From IMG/VR virus record IMGVR_UViG_2703718775_000013: a stretch of DNA of 64,000 nt, one strand, 5' to 3'. The notes under the pieces are model-generated. The model was not told where the DNA came from. It saw nothing but the letters and a program-made list of their open reading frames with translations, and did not search any database. Each line of letters opens with the position of its first letter. The stretch's first letter is position 1. A program made the position numbers and the translations under genes. The stretch is from a virus. Lineage: Duplodnaviria > Heunggongvirae > Uroviricota > Caudoviricetes. Shown in pieces: positions 10,391 through 15,710 of the stretch.

Positions 10391-10783
10391 ATGTCTGATA
10401 AAGTAACAGTAAAGCAAACTATCAACAAAGCGACTTCAATTTACAAAATTGAGCACATCACTGTTGGCAAGCCAGGATCTGAACAATACCGTCATGCTTT
10501 CGAGCTTGCCGATCAGCTTGGTTTAAAACACCCGGATTGCATCGAGCATGTATTTCCGACCTATGCTGATGAGCAATGTACTCATGTTCTTACCGAAGAG
10601 GATTTTTTCAGCACTGAAGAACGAGAAGGCGTTGATCGCTGCATTGGTGTGATTTGCTCTTCAGTGAGTTATGAGTTATTCCCTAATGTCCATGAAAATG
10701 GTGGTATTGGATACCAATTCCTGTACGAAGGCGATGAGCTTAAATGTTATGAACATGGTCTTCTTATCGAAAGCGTAGAATAA
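10391..10783 (+). CDS. hypothetical protein
   Basis: 130-aa ORF with RBS-like spacing, followed by hairpin plus T-run. Confidence 0.6.
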   Translation: MSDKVTVKQTINKATSIYKIEHITVGKPGSEQYRHAFELADQLGLKHPDCIEHVFPTYADEQCTHVLTEEDFFSTEEREGVDRCIGVICSSVSYELFPNVHENGGIGYQFLYEGDELKCYEHGLLIESVE

Positions 10784-10825
10784 TACCCTTCCTTCCAACC
10801 GGCTATGTTGGCCGGTTTATTCAAC

Positions 10826-10905
10826 TTATCCACAGCATAGATCCAATAAACAGATCCTAAAGAGAACCCAGGAAGATCCAAAGAAGATCCCGGATCGCTG
10901 TAAGC
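10826..10905. promoter_or_regulatory. oriR-like origin core: DnaA box TTATCCACA (10826-10834) and cluster of five GATC sites
   Basis: Perfect DnaA box consensus and GATC-rich segment directly upstream of the iterons and repA, as in P1 oriR. Confidence 0.7.
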
Positions 10906-10936
10906 CGCGCCATTTCTGGCCTGAAATGGGATCAAC

Positions 10937-11058
10937 ATTGACTATACGCGATTTTATGTTGACTGTGCACGATTTATTGTTGACTGCACGCGATTTATTG
11001 TTGACTATATGCGACAGAAACATTGACTGTACGCGATTTTAGAGCCTGACTATTCACA
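10937..11058 (+). repeat. origin iterons (five to six direct repeats of about 21 bp, TTGACT(A/G)T(A/G)(C/T)(A/G)CGATTT)
   Basis: TTGACT motif recurs at 10938, 10959, 10980, 11001, 11023 (21-22 bp phasing) immediately upstream of repA. Confidence 0.85.
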
Positions 11059-11116
11059 GTTGTTGATAACTGCAATCCAGATGACGCCAGGCCGCGCCAC
11101 ATATGGAGAAACCACG

Positions 11117-12001
11117 ATGCTGGAAGAAAATAAAGGCTTCCTTAGCGTTGAAGAAGTTGCAGGAAATACAGGAGAAATCCACAGCCTGAAACCCAATAAC
11201 AATAGCACTATACAACCCATTGCTTTGTTGCGCTTAGGTGTGTTTGTGCCAACCTTAAAATCTACCAATGTGGCACTACGTCGCGGATCGTCAGTTACTA
11301 CAAACACAACGAACGCAACCGAAGAACTATCAAGCCTCAAAATTGTTGAGCAGGAAGGCTATGAGGGAATTGAAATTCATGGTCCACGCCTGGATATGGA
11401 TACTGATTTTAAGGTGTGGGTGGGCATAACCTCCGCGTTGTTTGACTACGCACCTGATGATGACGGCATAATCACCCTGCCATTCTCCGAGTTTGCCGAT
11501 CGATGCGGCTATCCACGTAAGCGCCTTTCAAAGGCGTTCCGTAAAAGTATTGATGACTCTCTGACACGCATTCAGCAGACAGTTGTCAAATTCCGCTTCC
11601 CGGCGGCAAAAGGTCATCTCAATAACATTAACGTCAACTTGTTGGCATATAGCAGCCTGAATACCGAGCTTGATGTTATCGAGATCCAGCCGCAGAAACA
11701 GCTATCTGAACTTTACTATGTTGACTATAAGCGAATCCTGAAGCTGAAGATGCTGGATAAGCTCGGGCGCAAAGAGACGGCCAAGGTACTGTATACATTC
11801 TTTGAGGCTCTACCCGCCAACCCGGCACCTGTCAGCATTGAGCGCCTTAGAGCAAGGCTTAATCTCAAATCATCCGTTAGCGTGCAAAATAGCGTTATCA
11901 GAAAAGCCATGAAAGATTTGGAAGCTATTGAATATCTTAAATTTTCAGAGATAAAAAACGGCAGGAAAATCGGCTTTCAGATCCATAAGCGCAATCCATA
12001 A
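11117..12001 (+). CDS. repA: plasmid replication initiator RepA (iteron-binding)
   Basis: ATG at 11117 with GGAG 9 nt upstream; protein contains LRLGVFVP...HGPRLDMDTDFKVWVGI segment as I recall for P1 RepA; flanked by iteron arrays on both sides. Confidence 0.8.
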   Translation: MLEENKGFLSVEEVAGNTGEIHSLKPNNNSTIQPIALLRLGVFVPTLKSTNVALRRGSSVTTNTTNATEELSSLKIVEQEGYEGIEIHGPRLDMDTDFKVWVGITSALFDYAPDDDGIITLPFSEFADRCGYPRKRLSKAFRKSIDDSLTRIQQTVVKFRFPAAKGHLNNINVNLLAYSSLNTELDVIEIQPQKQLSELYYVDYKRILKLKMLDKLGRKETAKVLYTFFEALPANPAPVSIERLRARLNLKSSVSVQNSVIRKAMKDLEAIEYLKFSEIKNGRKIGFQIHKRNP

Positions 12002-12003
12002 TA

Positions 12004-12259
12004 TTGACTATATGCGATAGCGAGAAGTTGACTATAGGCGACATTCGTTGACGCTGGTGGATTTTTGCTGGCGTCAATATTCTGCAAGTCGCTATTGAGA
12101 TGGCTTTTAGGGTCATTTCATCGCGTATAGTCAACGTTTCTCCCGACAATATCTTACATAGTCGATCTTTGGTGGAGTTAAATCGACTACAGTCAACTTT
12201 TGACTGTAGTCACATCGCGCATAGTCAACTATTCACATTAACTTTCGCGCATAGTCAAC
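12004..12259. repeat. incA-like control iterons (about nine copies in both orientations)
   Basis: TTGACTATATGCGA, TTGACTATAGGCGA and reverse-orientation CGCG(C/T)ATAGTCAA copies downstream of repA. Confidence 0.8.
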
Positions 12260-12293
12260 ATTTGCGCGGTTCTCATCAAGCAGTGGTATTGAT

Positions 12294-12629
12294 ATGCAAG
12301 AAGAGAAACAACACTACCTCTACGTTCTGGTGCCGGAGAACGGAGATACTTTTAAAATCGGCATTTCATGTGGTCCATTGGCACGGTTTAAAGGGCTACA
12401 AGTGAGTCCCGATTTTGCGCTTTCACGGGTCTATCGTGGTACGCGTTTGGCAATGGTTAATCTTGAGCGGGCTTTACACGCAACCTTTTTCCCCTGGAAT
12501 GCGCCGTGGGAGAAAAGCGCCGGTGGCGGGCATACTGAATGGTTTACACGAGAGTGTCTTGATAAGGTTTTGGCTCATATCGAATATCTAAATGATATGT
12601 GGGGAGGGATTCTCGAGCGCATTAAGTAG
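12294..12629 (+). CDS. GIY-YIG-like (T5orf172-type) domain protein
   Basis: 111 aa; N-terminal YLYVLVPENGDTFKIGIS followed by conserved R, H and EWF, the pattern of T5orf172/GIY-YIG-like domains; motif-level inference. Confidence 0.5.
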   Translation: MQEEKQHYLYVLVPENGDTFKIGISCGPLARFKGLQVSPDFALSRVYRGTRLAMVNLERALHATFFPWNAPWEKSAGGGHTEWFTRECLDKVLAHIEYLNDMWGGILERIK

Positions 12630-12698
12630 AATGATTTACTTCAGCGTCCAGTAGATGCTGCTCGCTCTTTCGAAAAAGAACTGGATGTTACTTCTATC

Positions 12699-13103
12699 GT
12701 GACTTTCAAAGATGACGCAGGAATGAGGGACGTGGCTTATGTCTCCATATCTGGCTATGAACCGGACGCGATCCGCGCTCAATGTGAATTGCTGAAAGCA
12801 ATGTTTATGCTTCGGACTAAATATCCCTGGGAGACAGGGCGGGTGTGCTTCCCTATGGAAGAGTTAACCGCCACCATTGATTCTCAGCTTTACCACGATA
12901 ATCCAGAGAAGTTTTTTAGCCTTTTAGCCGGTAATGGGCTTAACTGTGTGTCCGGGCTGGGGCGAAGTAGAATCCAACATGCCTCGCTCTTCGGTCCCTT
13001 CTTTTACGATCGACACGGGTACTTTGAGGCTGAACTTCCGGCGCTTACGCGTGCTATAGATACTATCGATTTCGAACGATTATTCGCTGCTCTTAGCAAA
13101 TAA
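12699..13103 (+). CDS. hypothetical protein
   Basis: 134-aa ORF followed by strong rho-independent terminator. Confidence 0.55.
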   Translation: MTFKDDAGMRDVAYVSISGYEPDAIRAQCELLKAMFMLRTKYPWETGRVCFPMEELTATIDSQLYHDNPEKFFSLLAGNGLNCVSGLGRSRIQHASLFGPFFYDRHGYFEAELPALTRAIDTIDFERLFAALSK

Positions 13104-13107
13104 CACT

Positions 13108-13132
13108 GATGCCCCTGAACGGGGCTTTTTTG
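13108..13132 (+). terminator. rho-independent terminator
   Basis: GCCCCTGAACGGGGC hairpin followed by TTTTTT. Confidence 0.75.
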
Positions 13133-13271
13133 TGCCTTTCTTGTAACTCTCAATCGTGCAAAATGAACAAAACATGCAGAGAATGCCATGTACAAGCATC
13201 TACGCATACATTATTATTTTATGCAGCATTTTTAATTAAATTCAAAAATACAGCATAAAGGATGACTTTCG

Positions 13272-14468
13272 ATGAGTGATTCCAGCCAGCTTCACAAGGT
13301 TGCTCAAAGAGCAAACAGAATGCTCAATGTTCTGACTGAACAAGTACAGTTGCAAAAGGATGAGCTACACGCGAACGAGTTTTACCAGGTCTATGCGAAA
13401 GCGGCACTGGCAAAATTGCCTCTACTGACTCGAGCGAACGTTGACTATGCCGTAAGTGAAATGGAAGAAAAGGGTTATGTTTTCGATAAACGCCCTGCTG
13501 GCTCTTCAATGAAATATGCGATGTCAATTCAGAACATCATTGACATATATGAACATCGCGGAGTGCCAAAATACCGGGATCGCTACAGCGAAGCGTATGT
13601 GATTTTCATCTCCAATCTTAAAGGCGGTGTGTCAAAAACTGTATCGACGGTTTCTCTGGCGCATGCAATGCGTGCTCACCCTCATCTTCTGATGGAAGAT
13701 TTAAGGATTCTGGTTATTGACCTTGATCCGCAATCTTCAGCAACGATGTTTTTAAGCCATAAACACTCTATTGGTATCGTAAACGCAACATCTGCACAGG
13801 CTATGTTGCAGAATGTAAGCCGTGAAGAGCTGTTAGAGGAGTTTATTGTTCCTTCTGTTGTACCTGGGGTTGACGTTATGCCTGCGTCGATTGACGATGC
13901 CTTTATTGCATCCGATTGGAGAGAGCTGTGCAATGAGCATCTACCGGGTCAGAACATCCATGCTGTCCTGAAAGAAAATGTGATTGATAAGCTGAAGAGC
14001 GATTATGACTTTATCCTCGTTGATAGTGGTCCTCACCTTGACGCCTTCCTGAAAAATGCTTTGGCCTCGGCCAATATACTGTTTACACCTCTGCCGCCAG
14101 CAACTGTCGATTTCCACTCATCGCTTAAATACGTTGCCCGCCTTCCTGAGTTGGTGAAACTCATTTCGGATGAAGGCTGCGAGTGCCAGCTTGCGACTAA
14201 CATTGGTTTTATGTCCAAGTTGAGTAACAAGGCAGATCATAAGTATTGCCATAGCCTGGCTAAAGAAGTGTTCGGTGGGGATATGCTCGATGTCGTCCTC
14301 CCTCGCCTTGACGGTTTTGAACGTTGCGGCGAGTCTTTTGACACTGTTATTTCAGCTAACCCGGCAACGTATGTTGGTAGTGCTGATGCATTGAAGAACG
14401 CGCGAATTGCCGCGGAAGATTTTGCTAAAGCAGTTTTTGACCGTATTGAATTTATCAGATCTAACTGA
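13272..14468 (+). CDS. parA: partition ATPase ParA (type Ia)
   Basis: 398 aa; deviant Walker A NLKGGVSKT, N-terminal DNA-binding extension; sequence and length as I recall for P1 ParA. Confidence 0.9.
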   Translation: MSDSSQLHKVAQRANRMLNVLTEQVQLQKDELHANEFYQVYAKAALAKLPLLTRANVDYAVSEMEEKGYVFDKRPAGSSMKYAMSIQNIIDIYEHRGVPKYRDRYSEAYVIFISNLKGGVSKTVSTVSLAHAMRAHPHLLMEDLRILVIDLDPQSSATMFLSHKHSIGIVNATSAQAMLQNVSREELLEEFIVPSVVPGVDVMPASIDDAFIASDWRELCNEHLPGQNIHAVLKENVIDKLKSDYDFILVDSGPHLDAFLKNALASANILFTPLPPATVDFHSSLKYVARLPELVKLISDEGCECQLATNIGFMSKLSNKADHKYCHSLAKEVFGGDMLDVVLPRLDGFERCGESFDTVISANPATYVGSADALKNARIAAEDFAKAVFDRIEFIRSN

Positions 14469-14484
14469 GGAGTAAGAAACCCCC

Positions 14485-15486
14485 ATGTCAAAGAAAAACA
14501 GACCAACAATTGGGCGAACCCTTAATCCTTCAATATTAAGCGGATTTGATAGTTCTTCAGCCTCTGGCGATCGAGTCGAGCAGGTATTCAAGTTATCAAC
14601 TGGTCGCCAGGCCACATTTATTGAAGAGGTAATACCTCCGAACCAGGTAGAAAGCGATACCTTTGTTGATCAGCATAACAACGGGCGTGACCAGGCATCT
14701 CTTACGCCAAAATCATTAAAAAGTATCCGAAGCACTATTAAGCATCAGCAATTTTACCCTGCAATAGGTGTTAGACGGGGTACAGGGAAAATTGAAATTT
14801 TGGATGGTTCCCGGCGTCGAGCTTCTGCCATCTTAGAGAACGTAGGGTTGCGGGTTTTAGTCACGGACCAGGAGATCAGCGTTCAGGAAGCGCAAAATTT
14901 AGCGAAAGACGTTCAGACAGCATTGCAGCACAGCATTCGAGAAATAGGTCTGCGTTTGATGCGAATGAAAAATGATGGGATGAGTCAGAAGGATATTGCA
15001 GCCAAAGAAGGGCTGTCTCAGGCTAAGGTCACGCGTGCTCTCCAGGCAGCGAGTGCTCCGGAAGAATTAGTCGCCCTTTTCCCTGTGCAGTCGGAATTAA
15101 CCTTTTCGGACTACAAAACGCTTTGTGCTGTTGGCGACGAAATGGGGAACAAGAATTTAGAGTTTGATCAGCTTATTCAAAACATATCCCCGGAAATAAA
15201 CGACATCTTATCCATTGAAGAAATGGCCGAAGATGAAGTTAAAAATAAAATCCTGCGCTTGATAACAAAGGAAGCCTCACTACTCACGGATAAAGGTTCT
15301 AAAGATAAGTCCGTAGTTACTGAATTATGGAAATTTGAGGACAAGGATCGCTTTGCAAGGAAGCGCGTGAAAGGCCGTGCATTTTCTTATGAGTTTAATC
15401 GACTTTCAAAAGAGCTACAGGAAGAACTCGACAGGATGATTGGGCATATCCTTAGAAAGAGCCTCGATAAAAAGCCGAAGCCTTAA
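14485..15486 (+). CDS. parB: partition protein ParB (centromere-binding)
   Basis: 333 aa; immediately downstream of parA and upstream of parS. Confidence 0.9.
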   Translation: MSKKNRPTIGRTLNPSILSGFDSSSASGDRVEQVFKLSTGRQATFIEEVIPPNQVESDTFVDQHNNGRDQASLTPKSLKSIRSTIKHQQFYPAIGVRRGTGKIEILDGSRRRASAILENVGLRVLVTDQEISVQEAQNLAKDVQTALQHSIREIGLRLMRMKNDGMSQKDIAAKEGLSQAKVTRALQAASAPEELVALFPVQSELTFSDYKTLCAVGDEMGNKNLEFDQLIQNISPEINDILSIEEMAEDEVKNKILRLITKEASLLTDKGSKDKSVVTELWKFEDKDRFARKRVKGRAFSYEFNRLSKELQEELDRMIGHILRKSLDKKPKP

Positions 15487-15487
15487 A

Positions 15488-15575
15488 CTTTCGCCATTCA
15501 AATTTCACTATTAACCTACTGTTTTTAAAGTAAATCCATCTAAAATTTCAAGGTGAAATCGCCACGATTTCACCT
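15488..15575. promoter_or_regulatory. parS centromere (box A ATTTCAC and box B TCGCCA motifs flanking an AT-rich IHF-like site)
   Basis: TCGCCA at 15491, ATTTCAC at 15503, then GTGAAATCGCCACGATTTCAC at 15552-15572; architecture matches P1 parS. Confidence 0.8.
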
Positions 15576-15710
15576 TGGATTTTACCTTCCTCCCCTACTC
15601 CCGAAAAAATAAAAAAATTGCTTGTCACGAGAAAGTCAACAAGTGACTTTCAATAAAATCTCTTCCGAAAAGGGATTCACACAAGTGCCTTGTGTTTAAG
15701 GAAGAGTAAA

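Follow-up and report, generated by a model that had tools for sequence, protein, structure and literature searches.

We identified positions 10826-12260 of the window (the whole stretch of phage DNA analyzed, 64 kb in length) as the plasmid-replication replicon of a P1-like phage-plasmid that belongs to the PlasmidFinder type "p0111", a reading to which we assign a probability of roughly 0.9. Sequence alignments support a modular exchange in which the replication-specificity determinant was replaced within a P1 backbone. Over positions 10780-12300, which include repA and its flanks, the window is 100% identical at the nucleotide level to plasmid pO111_2 (NC_013370.1) of E. coli O111:H- 11128. 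Plasmid pO111_2 corresponds to AP010962 (PMC9748602), and AP010962 is the reference of the p0111 rep type in PlasmidFinder (PMC11165635). The rep gene thus lies above the typing threshold of ~95% nucleotide identity to this reference, where the equation of AP010962 with NC_013370 is based on the plasmid name pO111_2 and on PMC9748602. Nucleotide identity to the phages SJ46, RCS47, JL22, vB_EcoM-Ro157c2YLVW and phi456 is 97.7-99.5%, and the replicon is embedded in the backbone of a P1-like phage-plasmid, with flanks that are 96-99% identical to P1. Nothing of substance differs between the window and the p0111 reference and phages; the T5orf172 gene downstream of the replicon is interrupted by a TAG codon in the window and also in pO111_2, whereas it forms a single ORF in SJ46.

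The literature distinguishes two replicon types among P1-like phage-plasmids, IncY and p0111 (PMC9603915, PMC11165635, PMC10879196). Phage JL22 was described as having 'repA' (p0111)' in place of 'repA (IncY)', and among 55 P1-like elements p0111 was found in 24 and IncY in 31 (PMC9603915). Another collection of 119 P1-like phage-plasmids contained 63 of the p0111 type and 52 of the IncY type (PMC10879196). For Salmonella, 132 p0111 and 94 IncY elements were reported, and 17 switches were inferred on the tree (PMC11165635). The RepA proteins of SJ46 and RCS47 were found to be 42% identical to P1 RepA (PMC5241659). The replicon swap is genuine, yet it has been catalogued before as p0111, and both the IncY/p0111 dichotomy and the switches between the two types are published. 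A search for a description of the p0111 iterons in the searchable literature returned one incidental match only. The present analysis maps the origin and control iterons of p0111 at single-base level and adds the exact boundaries of the cassette (Table 1).

Table 1. Features of the p0111 replicon, the exchanged cassette and the adjoining partition region (positions in the window).
Feature	Position	Strand	Remarks
Hairpin ending the upstream gene upfA	10795-10811		
Swapped cassette	~10817-13169	+	Relative to canonical P1; oriR, repA, incA-like array, T5orf172 gene and terminator
DnaA box TTATCCACA	10826-10834	+	Exact consensus match; left end of oriR; aligns with the annotated P1 DnaA site
GATC (Dam) cluster, five sites	10840, 10853, 10875, 10886, 10893 (10840-10896)		Aligns with the five annotated P1 oriR Dam sites
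GC-rich spacer GCCGCGCCATTTCTGG	10904-10919		Between GATC cluster and iterons; shared with P1 and the 85% sister replicon (three-way alignment)
Sixth GATC	10930-10933		Beyond the five-site cluster
Five direct origin iterons (incC equivalent)	10936-11043	+	Cores at 10938, 10959, 10980, 11001, 11023; 25-28 bits each
DnaA-box-like sequence CTATTCACA	11050-11058	+	8/9 match; right end of origin; P1 also has boxes there
DnaA-box-like sequence TTATCAACA	11061-11069	-	8/9 match; right end of origin
repA	11117-12001	+	294 aa; predicted iteron-binding initiator of the Rep_3 type (WH1+WH2); GGAG 7 nt upstream
Iteron-like site inside repA TTGACTATAAGCGA	11719-11739	+	1 mismatch, 16 bits
incA-like putative control array	12002-12260	both	Begins directly after the repA stop
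Array copies, plus strand	12004, 12028 (strong), 12048 (weak)	+	
Array copies, minus strand, strong	12121-12134, 12183-12196, 12215-12228, 12245-12258	-	
Array copy, minus strand, weaker	12152-12165	-	
T5orf172/GIY-YIG-like gene	12294-13103	+	Pfam T5orf172; in cassette, absent from P1
Terminator-like hairpin GCCCCTGAACGGGGC, then T-run	13111-13135	+	Just inside the right junction
parA	13272-14468	+	P1-type, not swapped; 397/398 aa identical to P1 ParA; Pfam HTH_54, AAA_31
parB	14485-15486	+	P1-type, not swapped; 332/333 aa identical to P1 ParB; Pfam ParB
parS centromere	15491-15573	+	P1-type; 78/83 nt identical to annotated P1 parS

Anatomy of the Origin

In the P1 genome used as comparator (NC_005856, locus L003), oriR, the DnaA site, five Dam sites, PrepA, Ppar, parA, parB and parS are annotated from experiments, as are incC iterons 14-10, repA and incA iterons 9-1. 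Element by element, the window is collinear with P1. Both have, in the same genomic slot, one or more DnaA boxes, five GATC sites, a GC spacer, five phased iterons, a Rep_3-type RepA of ~290 aa and an iteron array in two orientations that starts from the repA stop. P1 differs in having two tandem DnaA boxes at the left end, where the window has one perfect box, and nine incA iterons, where the window has seven to nine; furthermore, P1 is without the T5orf172 gene and the terminator before Ppar. A closer relative is found in a sister replicon on E. coli and E. marmotae plasmids of ~90 kb (locus L005, e.g., NZ_CP085065), the RepA of which is 85% identical (P0003). The sister replicon has the same oriR layout (DnaA box, five GATC sites, GC spacer, five iterons), an iteron core, TTGACTATGTGCGATTTAA, that is nearly the one of the window, and two to three plus-strand and four minus-strand downstream iterons, and no parAB follows downstream. 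These plasmids carry annotated tail and transglycosylase genes, and their backbone is unrelated, so that the replicon alone matches the P1-like phages.

The first-pass annotation of this DNA had described a DnaA box, five GATC sites and five or six direct iterons of 21 bp in front of repA. The box is present as a perfect match to TTATCCACA, and the five GATC sites were found as a compact cluster, supplemented by a sixth site. Four of the five clustered sites are contained in AGATCC heptamers, and the density of 6 GATC per 100 bp is the maximum of the 64-kb window (mean 4.2 per kb). Five direct iterons are present with a spacing of 21/21/21/22 bp. A sixth iteron at position 11046 was considered and rejected; this candidate deviates from the iteron at four positions and runs into a DnaA-box-like sequence, and the origin iteron count is therefore five. 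Matches of 8/9 to the DnaA box are common across the window, and the pair at the right end of the origin is no more than expected by chance. Phased direct iterons that lie upstream of rep and adjoin DnaA box(es) and a GATC-rich region are the arrangement of the P1 family, and this is the arrangement found here.

The iteron core is TTGACTRTRYRCGAT, and the 12 clear copies give the consensus tgTTGACTaTacGCGATttta. When the 64 kb were searched with the pattern TTGACTRTRYRCGA, allowing up to two mismatches, 13 matches were obtained, all within 10938-12258. Shuffled sequences gave a mean of 4.2 matches per whole window, and 13 matches were reached in 0 of 100 shuffles. A weight-matrix scan of the 64-kb window gave no site above 11 bits outside the iteron region. 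The annotated 19-bp iterons of P1, GATGTGTGCTGGAGGGAAA, are unrelated to this sequence, in line with the initial remark that the iteron is unlike that of P1.

A consensus scan of the plus strand in and after the iterons found no repA promoter. The best candidate obtained by manual inspection matches at only ~8/12 positions; its -35 element would be TTGACT from one iteron and its -10 element GACTAT from the following iteron.

The Initiator and the Downstream Iteron Array

The repA ORF is located between two sets of iterons, as had been proposed. The encoded protein matches the Pfam domain Rep3_C with 27.3 bits, which is above the cut-off, and Rep3_N with 22.0 bits, just below the cut-off of 22.4; it also matches phrog_775, and the product is labelled RepB-family initiator in RefSeq. 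P1 RepA likewise matches Rep3_N and Rep3_C. The two RepA proteins show 41% identity along their full length (BLASTP, 2e-71), and the RepA of the window is thus a Rep_3 WH1/WH2 initiator homologous to P1 RepA from end to end, as in other replicons of the P1 family. Comparison of repA with its 85% relative gave a pN of 0.097, a pS of 0.77 and a pN/pS ratio of 0.13. These values indicate purifying selection on repA, the ORF of which is intact. In the iteron-like site inside repA, 17 nt (GTTGACTATAAGCGAAT) are unchanged in the sister replicon despite saturated synonymous sites.

Downstream of repA, seven clear and one to two weak iterons were counted. The earlier description of about nine downstream iterons in both orientations was right with respect to orientation and slightly generous with respect to number. 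A second iteron cluster of the incA type, downstream of rep and in two orientations, is a further property shared with the P1 family, and a role of this cluster in control is putative.

A Cassette Exchanged in a P1 Backbone

Compared with NC_005856, ~10817-13169 alone has been replaced and the flanks are 96-99% identical, which agrees with the modular exchange of the replication-specificity determinant suggested from the first inspection of the sequence. The concern raised with that suggestion, that iterons and RepA might be essentially those of P1, was checked by alignment and dispelled by the low RepA identity and the unrelated iterons. In blastn searches against the P1 locus, identity was 96% up to position 10920 and 98.8% from position 13170, and between these positions a single weak match of 59 bp (76%) within repA was found. 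The cassette displaces the oriR-repA-incA region of P1 together with ~170 bp of downstream spacer, and occupies the slot between upfA and the par promoter. P1-like genes flank it on the left (dmt, hrdC, upfB, ppfA and upfA) and on the right (parAB, gene 23 and gene 22). As the flanks are those of canonical P1, the data point to a cassette exchange in an otherwise P1 backbone in which the P1 parABS system was retained.

The end of the blastn alignment at 10920 was rejected as the left breakpoint, because the sister replicon shows that the half of oriR with the DnaA box, the GATC sites and the GC spacer travels with the replicon family. In the alignment with P1, identity is perfect through 10816 and then declines. 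This host-factor half of oriR is 87% identical to the sister replicon vs. 70.5% to P1, which indicates that the whole oriR is part of the swapped module and that the border is at ~10817. At the other end, ~150 PLSDB plasmids, many of which are IncY, match the window solely from 13170 onward, and the same right junction therefore divides IncY elements from p0111 elements that share the P1-type par region. Within the cassette, the T5orf172 gene is split by the in-frame TAG at 12627-12629 into ORFs of 111 aa and 123/134 aa, which lie in one frame and match positions 1-111 and 148-269 of phrog_2876.

The partition region had been described as P1-like, and this description holds to a high degree, since the parAB-parS DNA is 99.3% identical to that of canonical P1 (NC_005856/K02380). 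The parS boxes B1, A1, A2, A3, B2 and A4 are identical to those of P1, and two of the five differences from P1 parS lie within the IHF site. The region therefore has the P1-type ParB and the parS (box B TCGCCA, box A ATTTCAC/ATTTCAA) that define P1 incB. Identity of the window parA to P7 parA is only 64.6%. An exchange of replication and partition functions together is very improbable. It is suggested by the comparison with OP279344, relative to which the divergent block (10921-15533) takes in parAB, and by the statement that ParAB of RCS47 and SJ46 is 'identical to P7, distant from P1' (PMC5241659). However, OP279344 is labelled P1 while its rep-par region is of the P7 type (98.4% identity to AF503408), and the apparent par exchange is thus an artefact of the comparator; parAB of RCS47 and SJ46 shows 99.0-99.1% identity to the window. 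On these alignments, a joint rep-par exchange is refuted for canonical P1 and holds solely for the way in which the window differs from P7-type elements.

Distribution of the Replicon

The replicon is present with at least 95% identity in ~410 PLSDB plasmids. Among 5426 complete E. coli genomes, 415 carry it, with 410 of 418 places on plasmids and eight on chromosomes. The whole block from oriR to parS is retained in 382 PLSDB records, which have the linkage to the T5orf172 gene and the P1-type parABS in common. Most carrier plasmids (400/556) are non-mobilizable and mostly ~90-100 kb in size, which is typical of P1-like phage-plasmids. The other 156 of the 556 are predicted to be mobilizable or conjugative, and some carriers are multi-replicon cointegrates. 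The wide occurrence, the purifying selection on repA and the sister replicon, which preserves both origin layout and iteron core although its ~90-kb backbone is unrelated, are indirect indications of a working replicon.

We consider it highly unlikely that the cassette is decayed and that maintenance of the element depends on integration or on another replicon. The T5orf172 gene broken by a stop codon, the eight chromosomal copies in E. coli and the multi-replicon cointegrates among the carriers would fit such a decay. This is opposed by the intact repA under purifying selection, by the five origin iterons, which all score 25-28 bits, by the predominance of non-mobilizable carriers of phage-plasmid size and by the 382 records with the full oriR-to-parS block.

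Relationship to Other Initiator Families

RepFIB of the IncFIB replicon, found in F-type and Klebsiella plasmids, belongs to the same initiator family as the RepA of the window (44-49% full-length identity, ~47%), and the two replicons have the same general design. RepFIB differs in its longer Rep (~325-340 aa), its conjugative-plasmid setting and, where these were detected, other repeats; those downstream of the RepFIB gene in one IncFIA/IncFIB plasmid are CTSACTRYAKYTTATAT. A Rep protein of Proteus is 53% identical to RepA and is also associated with different repeats. The different repeats of RepFIB and of the Proteus Rep indicate that the replicon represents a distinct specificity within the family and is not IncFIB. 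In a search of 5.8 billion proteins, the only relatives with more than 53% identity to RepA were the p0111 cluster itself and the sister group at 85-94%. The same search, inspected for a donor of the cassette, gave no RepA between 53% and 85% identity.

Capture of an IncFIB (RepFIB) replicon from an F-type plasmid is an exceedingly unlikely origin of the cassette. RepFIB is slightly closer to RepA than P1 RepA is (~47% vs. 41%), and several phage records, among them MH422554 and MH445380, are annotated with 'RepFIB replication protein A'. Nevertheless, 47% is far outside the range of one replicon type, the repeats of the IncFIA/IncFIB plasmid differ, so that the RepFIB-type Rep and iterons that characterize IncFIB are lacking here, and the relatives above 53% are limited to the p0111 cluster and its sister group. 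That this is the classical IncY replicon of P1 and P7 has practically no probability: the architecture and genomic slot are the same and oriR can be aligned with P1 in its left part, but in place of a P1-type RepA with 19-bp GATGTGTGCTGGAGGGAAA iterons we found a RepA of 41% identity, no P1-type iterons, no iteron consensus shared with NC_005856 and a blastn match limited to the 59 bp mentioned above, and these alignments refute it.

Proposed Mechanism of Replication Control

By analogy with the P1 RepA/RepFIB family, the p0111 unit is very likely an iteron-controlled theta replicon for low-copy maintenance, which is the function that explains the observations best. RepA monomers would bind the five phased origin iterons and would open the origin in concert with host DnaA, located at the flanking box(es), and with the Dam-methylated GATC heptamer region. 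The downstream array in two orientations may titrate RepA and handcuff the origin, by which the copy number would be held down. When bound to the origin iterons, RepA probably represses its own promoter; as no promoter was found in the consensus scan, we infer this autoregulatory step.

Because RepA and all of its sites differ from those of P1, the initiator/iteron specificity underlying incC and incA is expected to be different, and the observation that RepA and all sites co-vary as one unit fits such a changed specificity. A p0111 element should be free of replication-control incompatibility with the IncY elements P1 and P7.

Coexistence of p0111 and IncY Elements

The replicon had initially been considered relevant to incompatibility and co-residence with P1. 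A change in specificity is supported by the alignments, yet the prospect of co-residence is weaker than was implied, with P1 par kept and few genomes carrying both replicons. Since the P1-type parS and ParB are retained, partition incompatibility (incB) with classical P1 should persist. Given this common centromere system, compatibility at the level of replication is no guarantee that a p0111 element can reside together with classical P1. Linkage of p0111 to the P1-type parABS is almost invariable, and the partition incompatibility may be reinforced by immunity or exclusion functions.

Among the 5426 complete E. coli genomes, p0111 repA was found in 415 and IncY repA in 359. A query in which both repA sequences were concatenated matched 772 genomes and 775 records, from which it follows by inclusion-exclusion that both replicons are present in 2 genomes, and in 0 single records. 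Under independence 27.5 genomes with both are expected, which corresponds to a 14-fold deficit (hypergeometric P ~8e-11), with lineage structure of the genome collection as a serious confounder that could also yield such a deficit. The deficit fits the tentative idea, which we consider possible rather than probable, that p0111 and IncY lineages still exclude each other in nature despite the swap of RepA and iterons. Such mutual exclusion would presumably involve P1-type immunity or exclusion functions tied to p0111.

The replicon type governs which plasmids and phage-plasmids share a cell, and the cargo of P1-like phage-plasmids is clinically relevant (CTX-M, SHV-2, mcr-1, cnf3). Recognizing the p0111 cassette thus benefits typing and surveillance, in which it is already routine. 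If the two lineages do exclude each other, escape from sibling P1-like elements would not be the force behind the repeated switches between IncY and p0111; one alternative would be escape from other plasmids, or from host or defence factors that act on RepA or the iterons.

Partition genes of the p0111-type phage-plasmid

The parAB region of the window, within positions 13100-15600, is 99.3% identical to that of canonical P1 (NC_005856/K02380) and 99.0-99.1% identical to parAB of the phages RCS47 and SJ46, which carry a near-identical replicon, and its identity with P7 parA is only 64.6%. In the passage of PMC5241659 that cites the RCS47 paper, ParA and ParB of RCS47 and SJ46 are said to be identical to those of P7 and distant from those of P1. 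The record OP279344.1 (locus L002), deposited as 'Escherichia phage P1 isolate del res del mod', is 98.4% identical to P7 in the rep-par region, with a ParA of 401 amino acids, a ParB of 321 amino acids and a P7-type parS. Despite the P1 label of this record, canonical P1 differs from it in the rep-par region, and par comparisons in which OP279344.1 stands in for P1 are misleading.

Additional features of the p0111 cassette

An iteron-like site lies inside repA (see table), and 17 nucleotides of it (GTTGACTATAAGCGAAT) are unchanged in the sister replicon with an 85% identical RepA, even though synonymous sites are saturated between the two genes (pS 0.77). Further 24-nucleotide runs are conserved to the same degree, and conservation therefore argues only weakly for this intragenic site. 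The inverted pair after repA could represent two degenerate facing iterons or a post-repA hairpin; its + half (TTGACGCTGGYGGATTT) is kept in the sister replicon.

Features of the p0111 cassette and related replicons
Feature	Location	Description
Iteron-like site TTGACTATAAGCGA	window 11719-11739	within repA coding sequence
Inverted pair TTGACGCTGG...CTGGCGTCAA	window 12046-12079	directly 3' of second + iteron
T5orf172/GIY-YIG-like gene	window 12294-13103	two small ORFs between control iterons and parA; phrog_2876
Sister replicon	L005 4700-6130	E. coli GCA_013513435; also NZ_CP085065 and relatives
Proteus mirabilis replicon	L007 4200-6500	RepA 53% identical

The two small ORFs are halves of one T5orf172/GIY-YIG-like gene (matching phrog_2876 positions 1-111 and 148-269), divided in the window by an in-frame TAG at 12627-12629. 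RefSeq annotates two CDS at this gene in pO111_2 (NC_013370.1), and SJ46 has one ORF. P1 lacks the gene, whereas the p0111 cassette carries it along. The replicon of pO111_2 is labeled 'IncHI1B' in PLSDB/MOB-suite; its Rep is of the p0111 type in an unrelated context, and the label is probably a typing-database artefact.

Related replicons and chromosomal copies

The origin region of the Proteus mirabilis replicon looks duplicated, with a DnaA box plus heptamer repeats present in two copies approximately 350 bp apart. Its control locus is much expanded relative to that of P1 or p0111: at least 11 units, each 43 bp in length, form a long array 3' of rep.

Among the E. coli complete genomes, eight p0111 and 11 IncY repA copies are chromosomal rather than plasmid-borne, which suggests that these are integrated P1-like elements.

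The sister replicon at L005 shares the oriR layout and the iteron core with p0111, in addition to the 85% RepA identity, and parAB is absent 3' of it. Its backbone of approximately 90 kb, with annotated phage tail and transglycosylase genes, is unlike that of the window, and L005-type plasmids may constitute a second phage-plasmid lineage with a p0111-family replicon.
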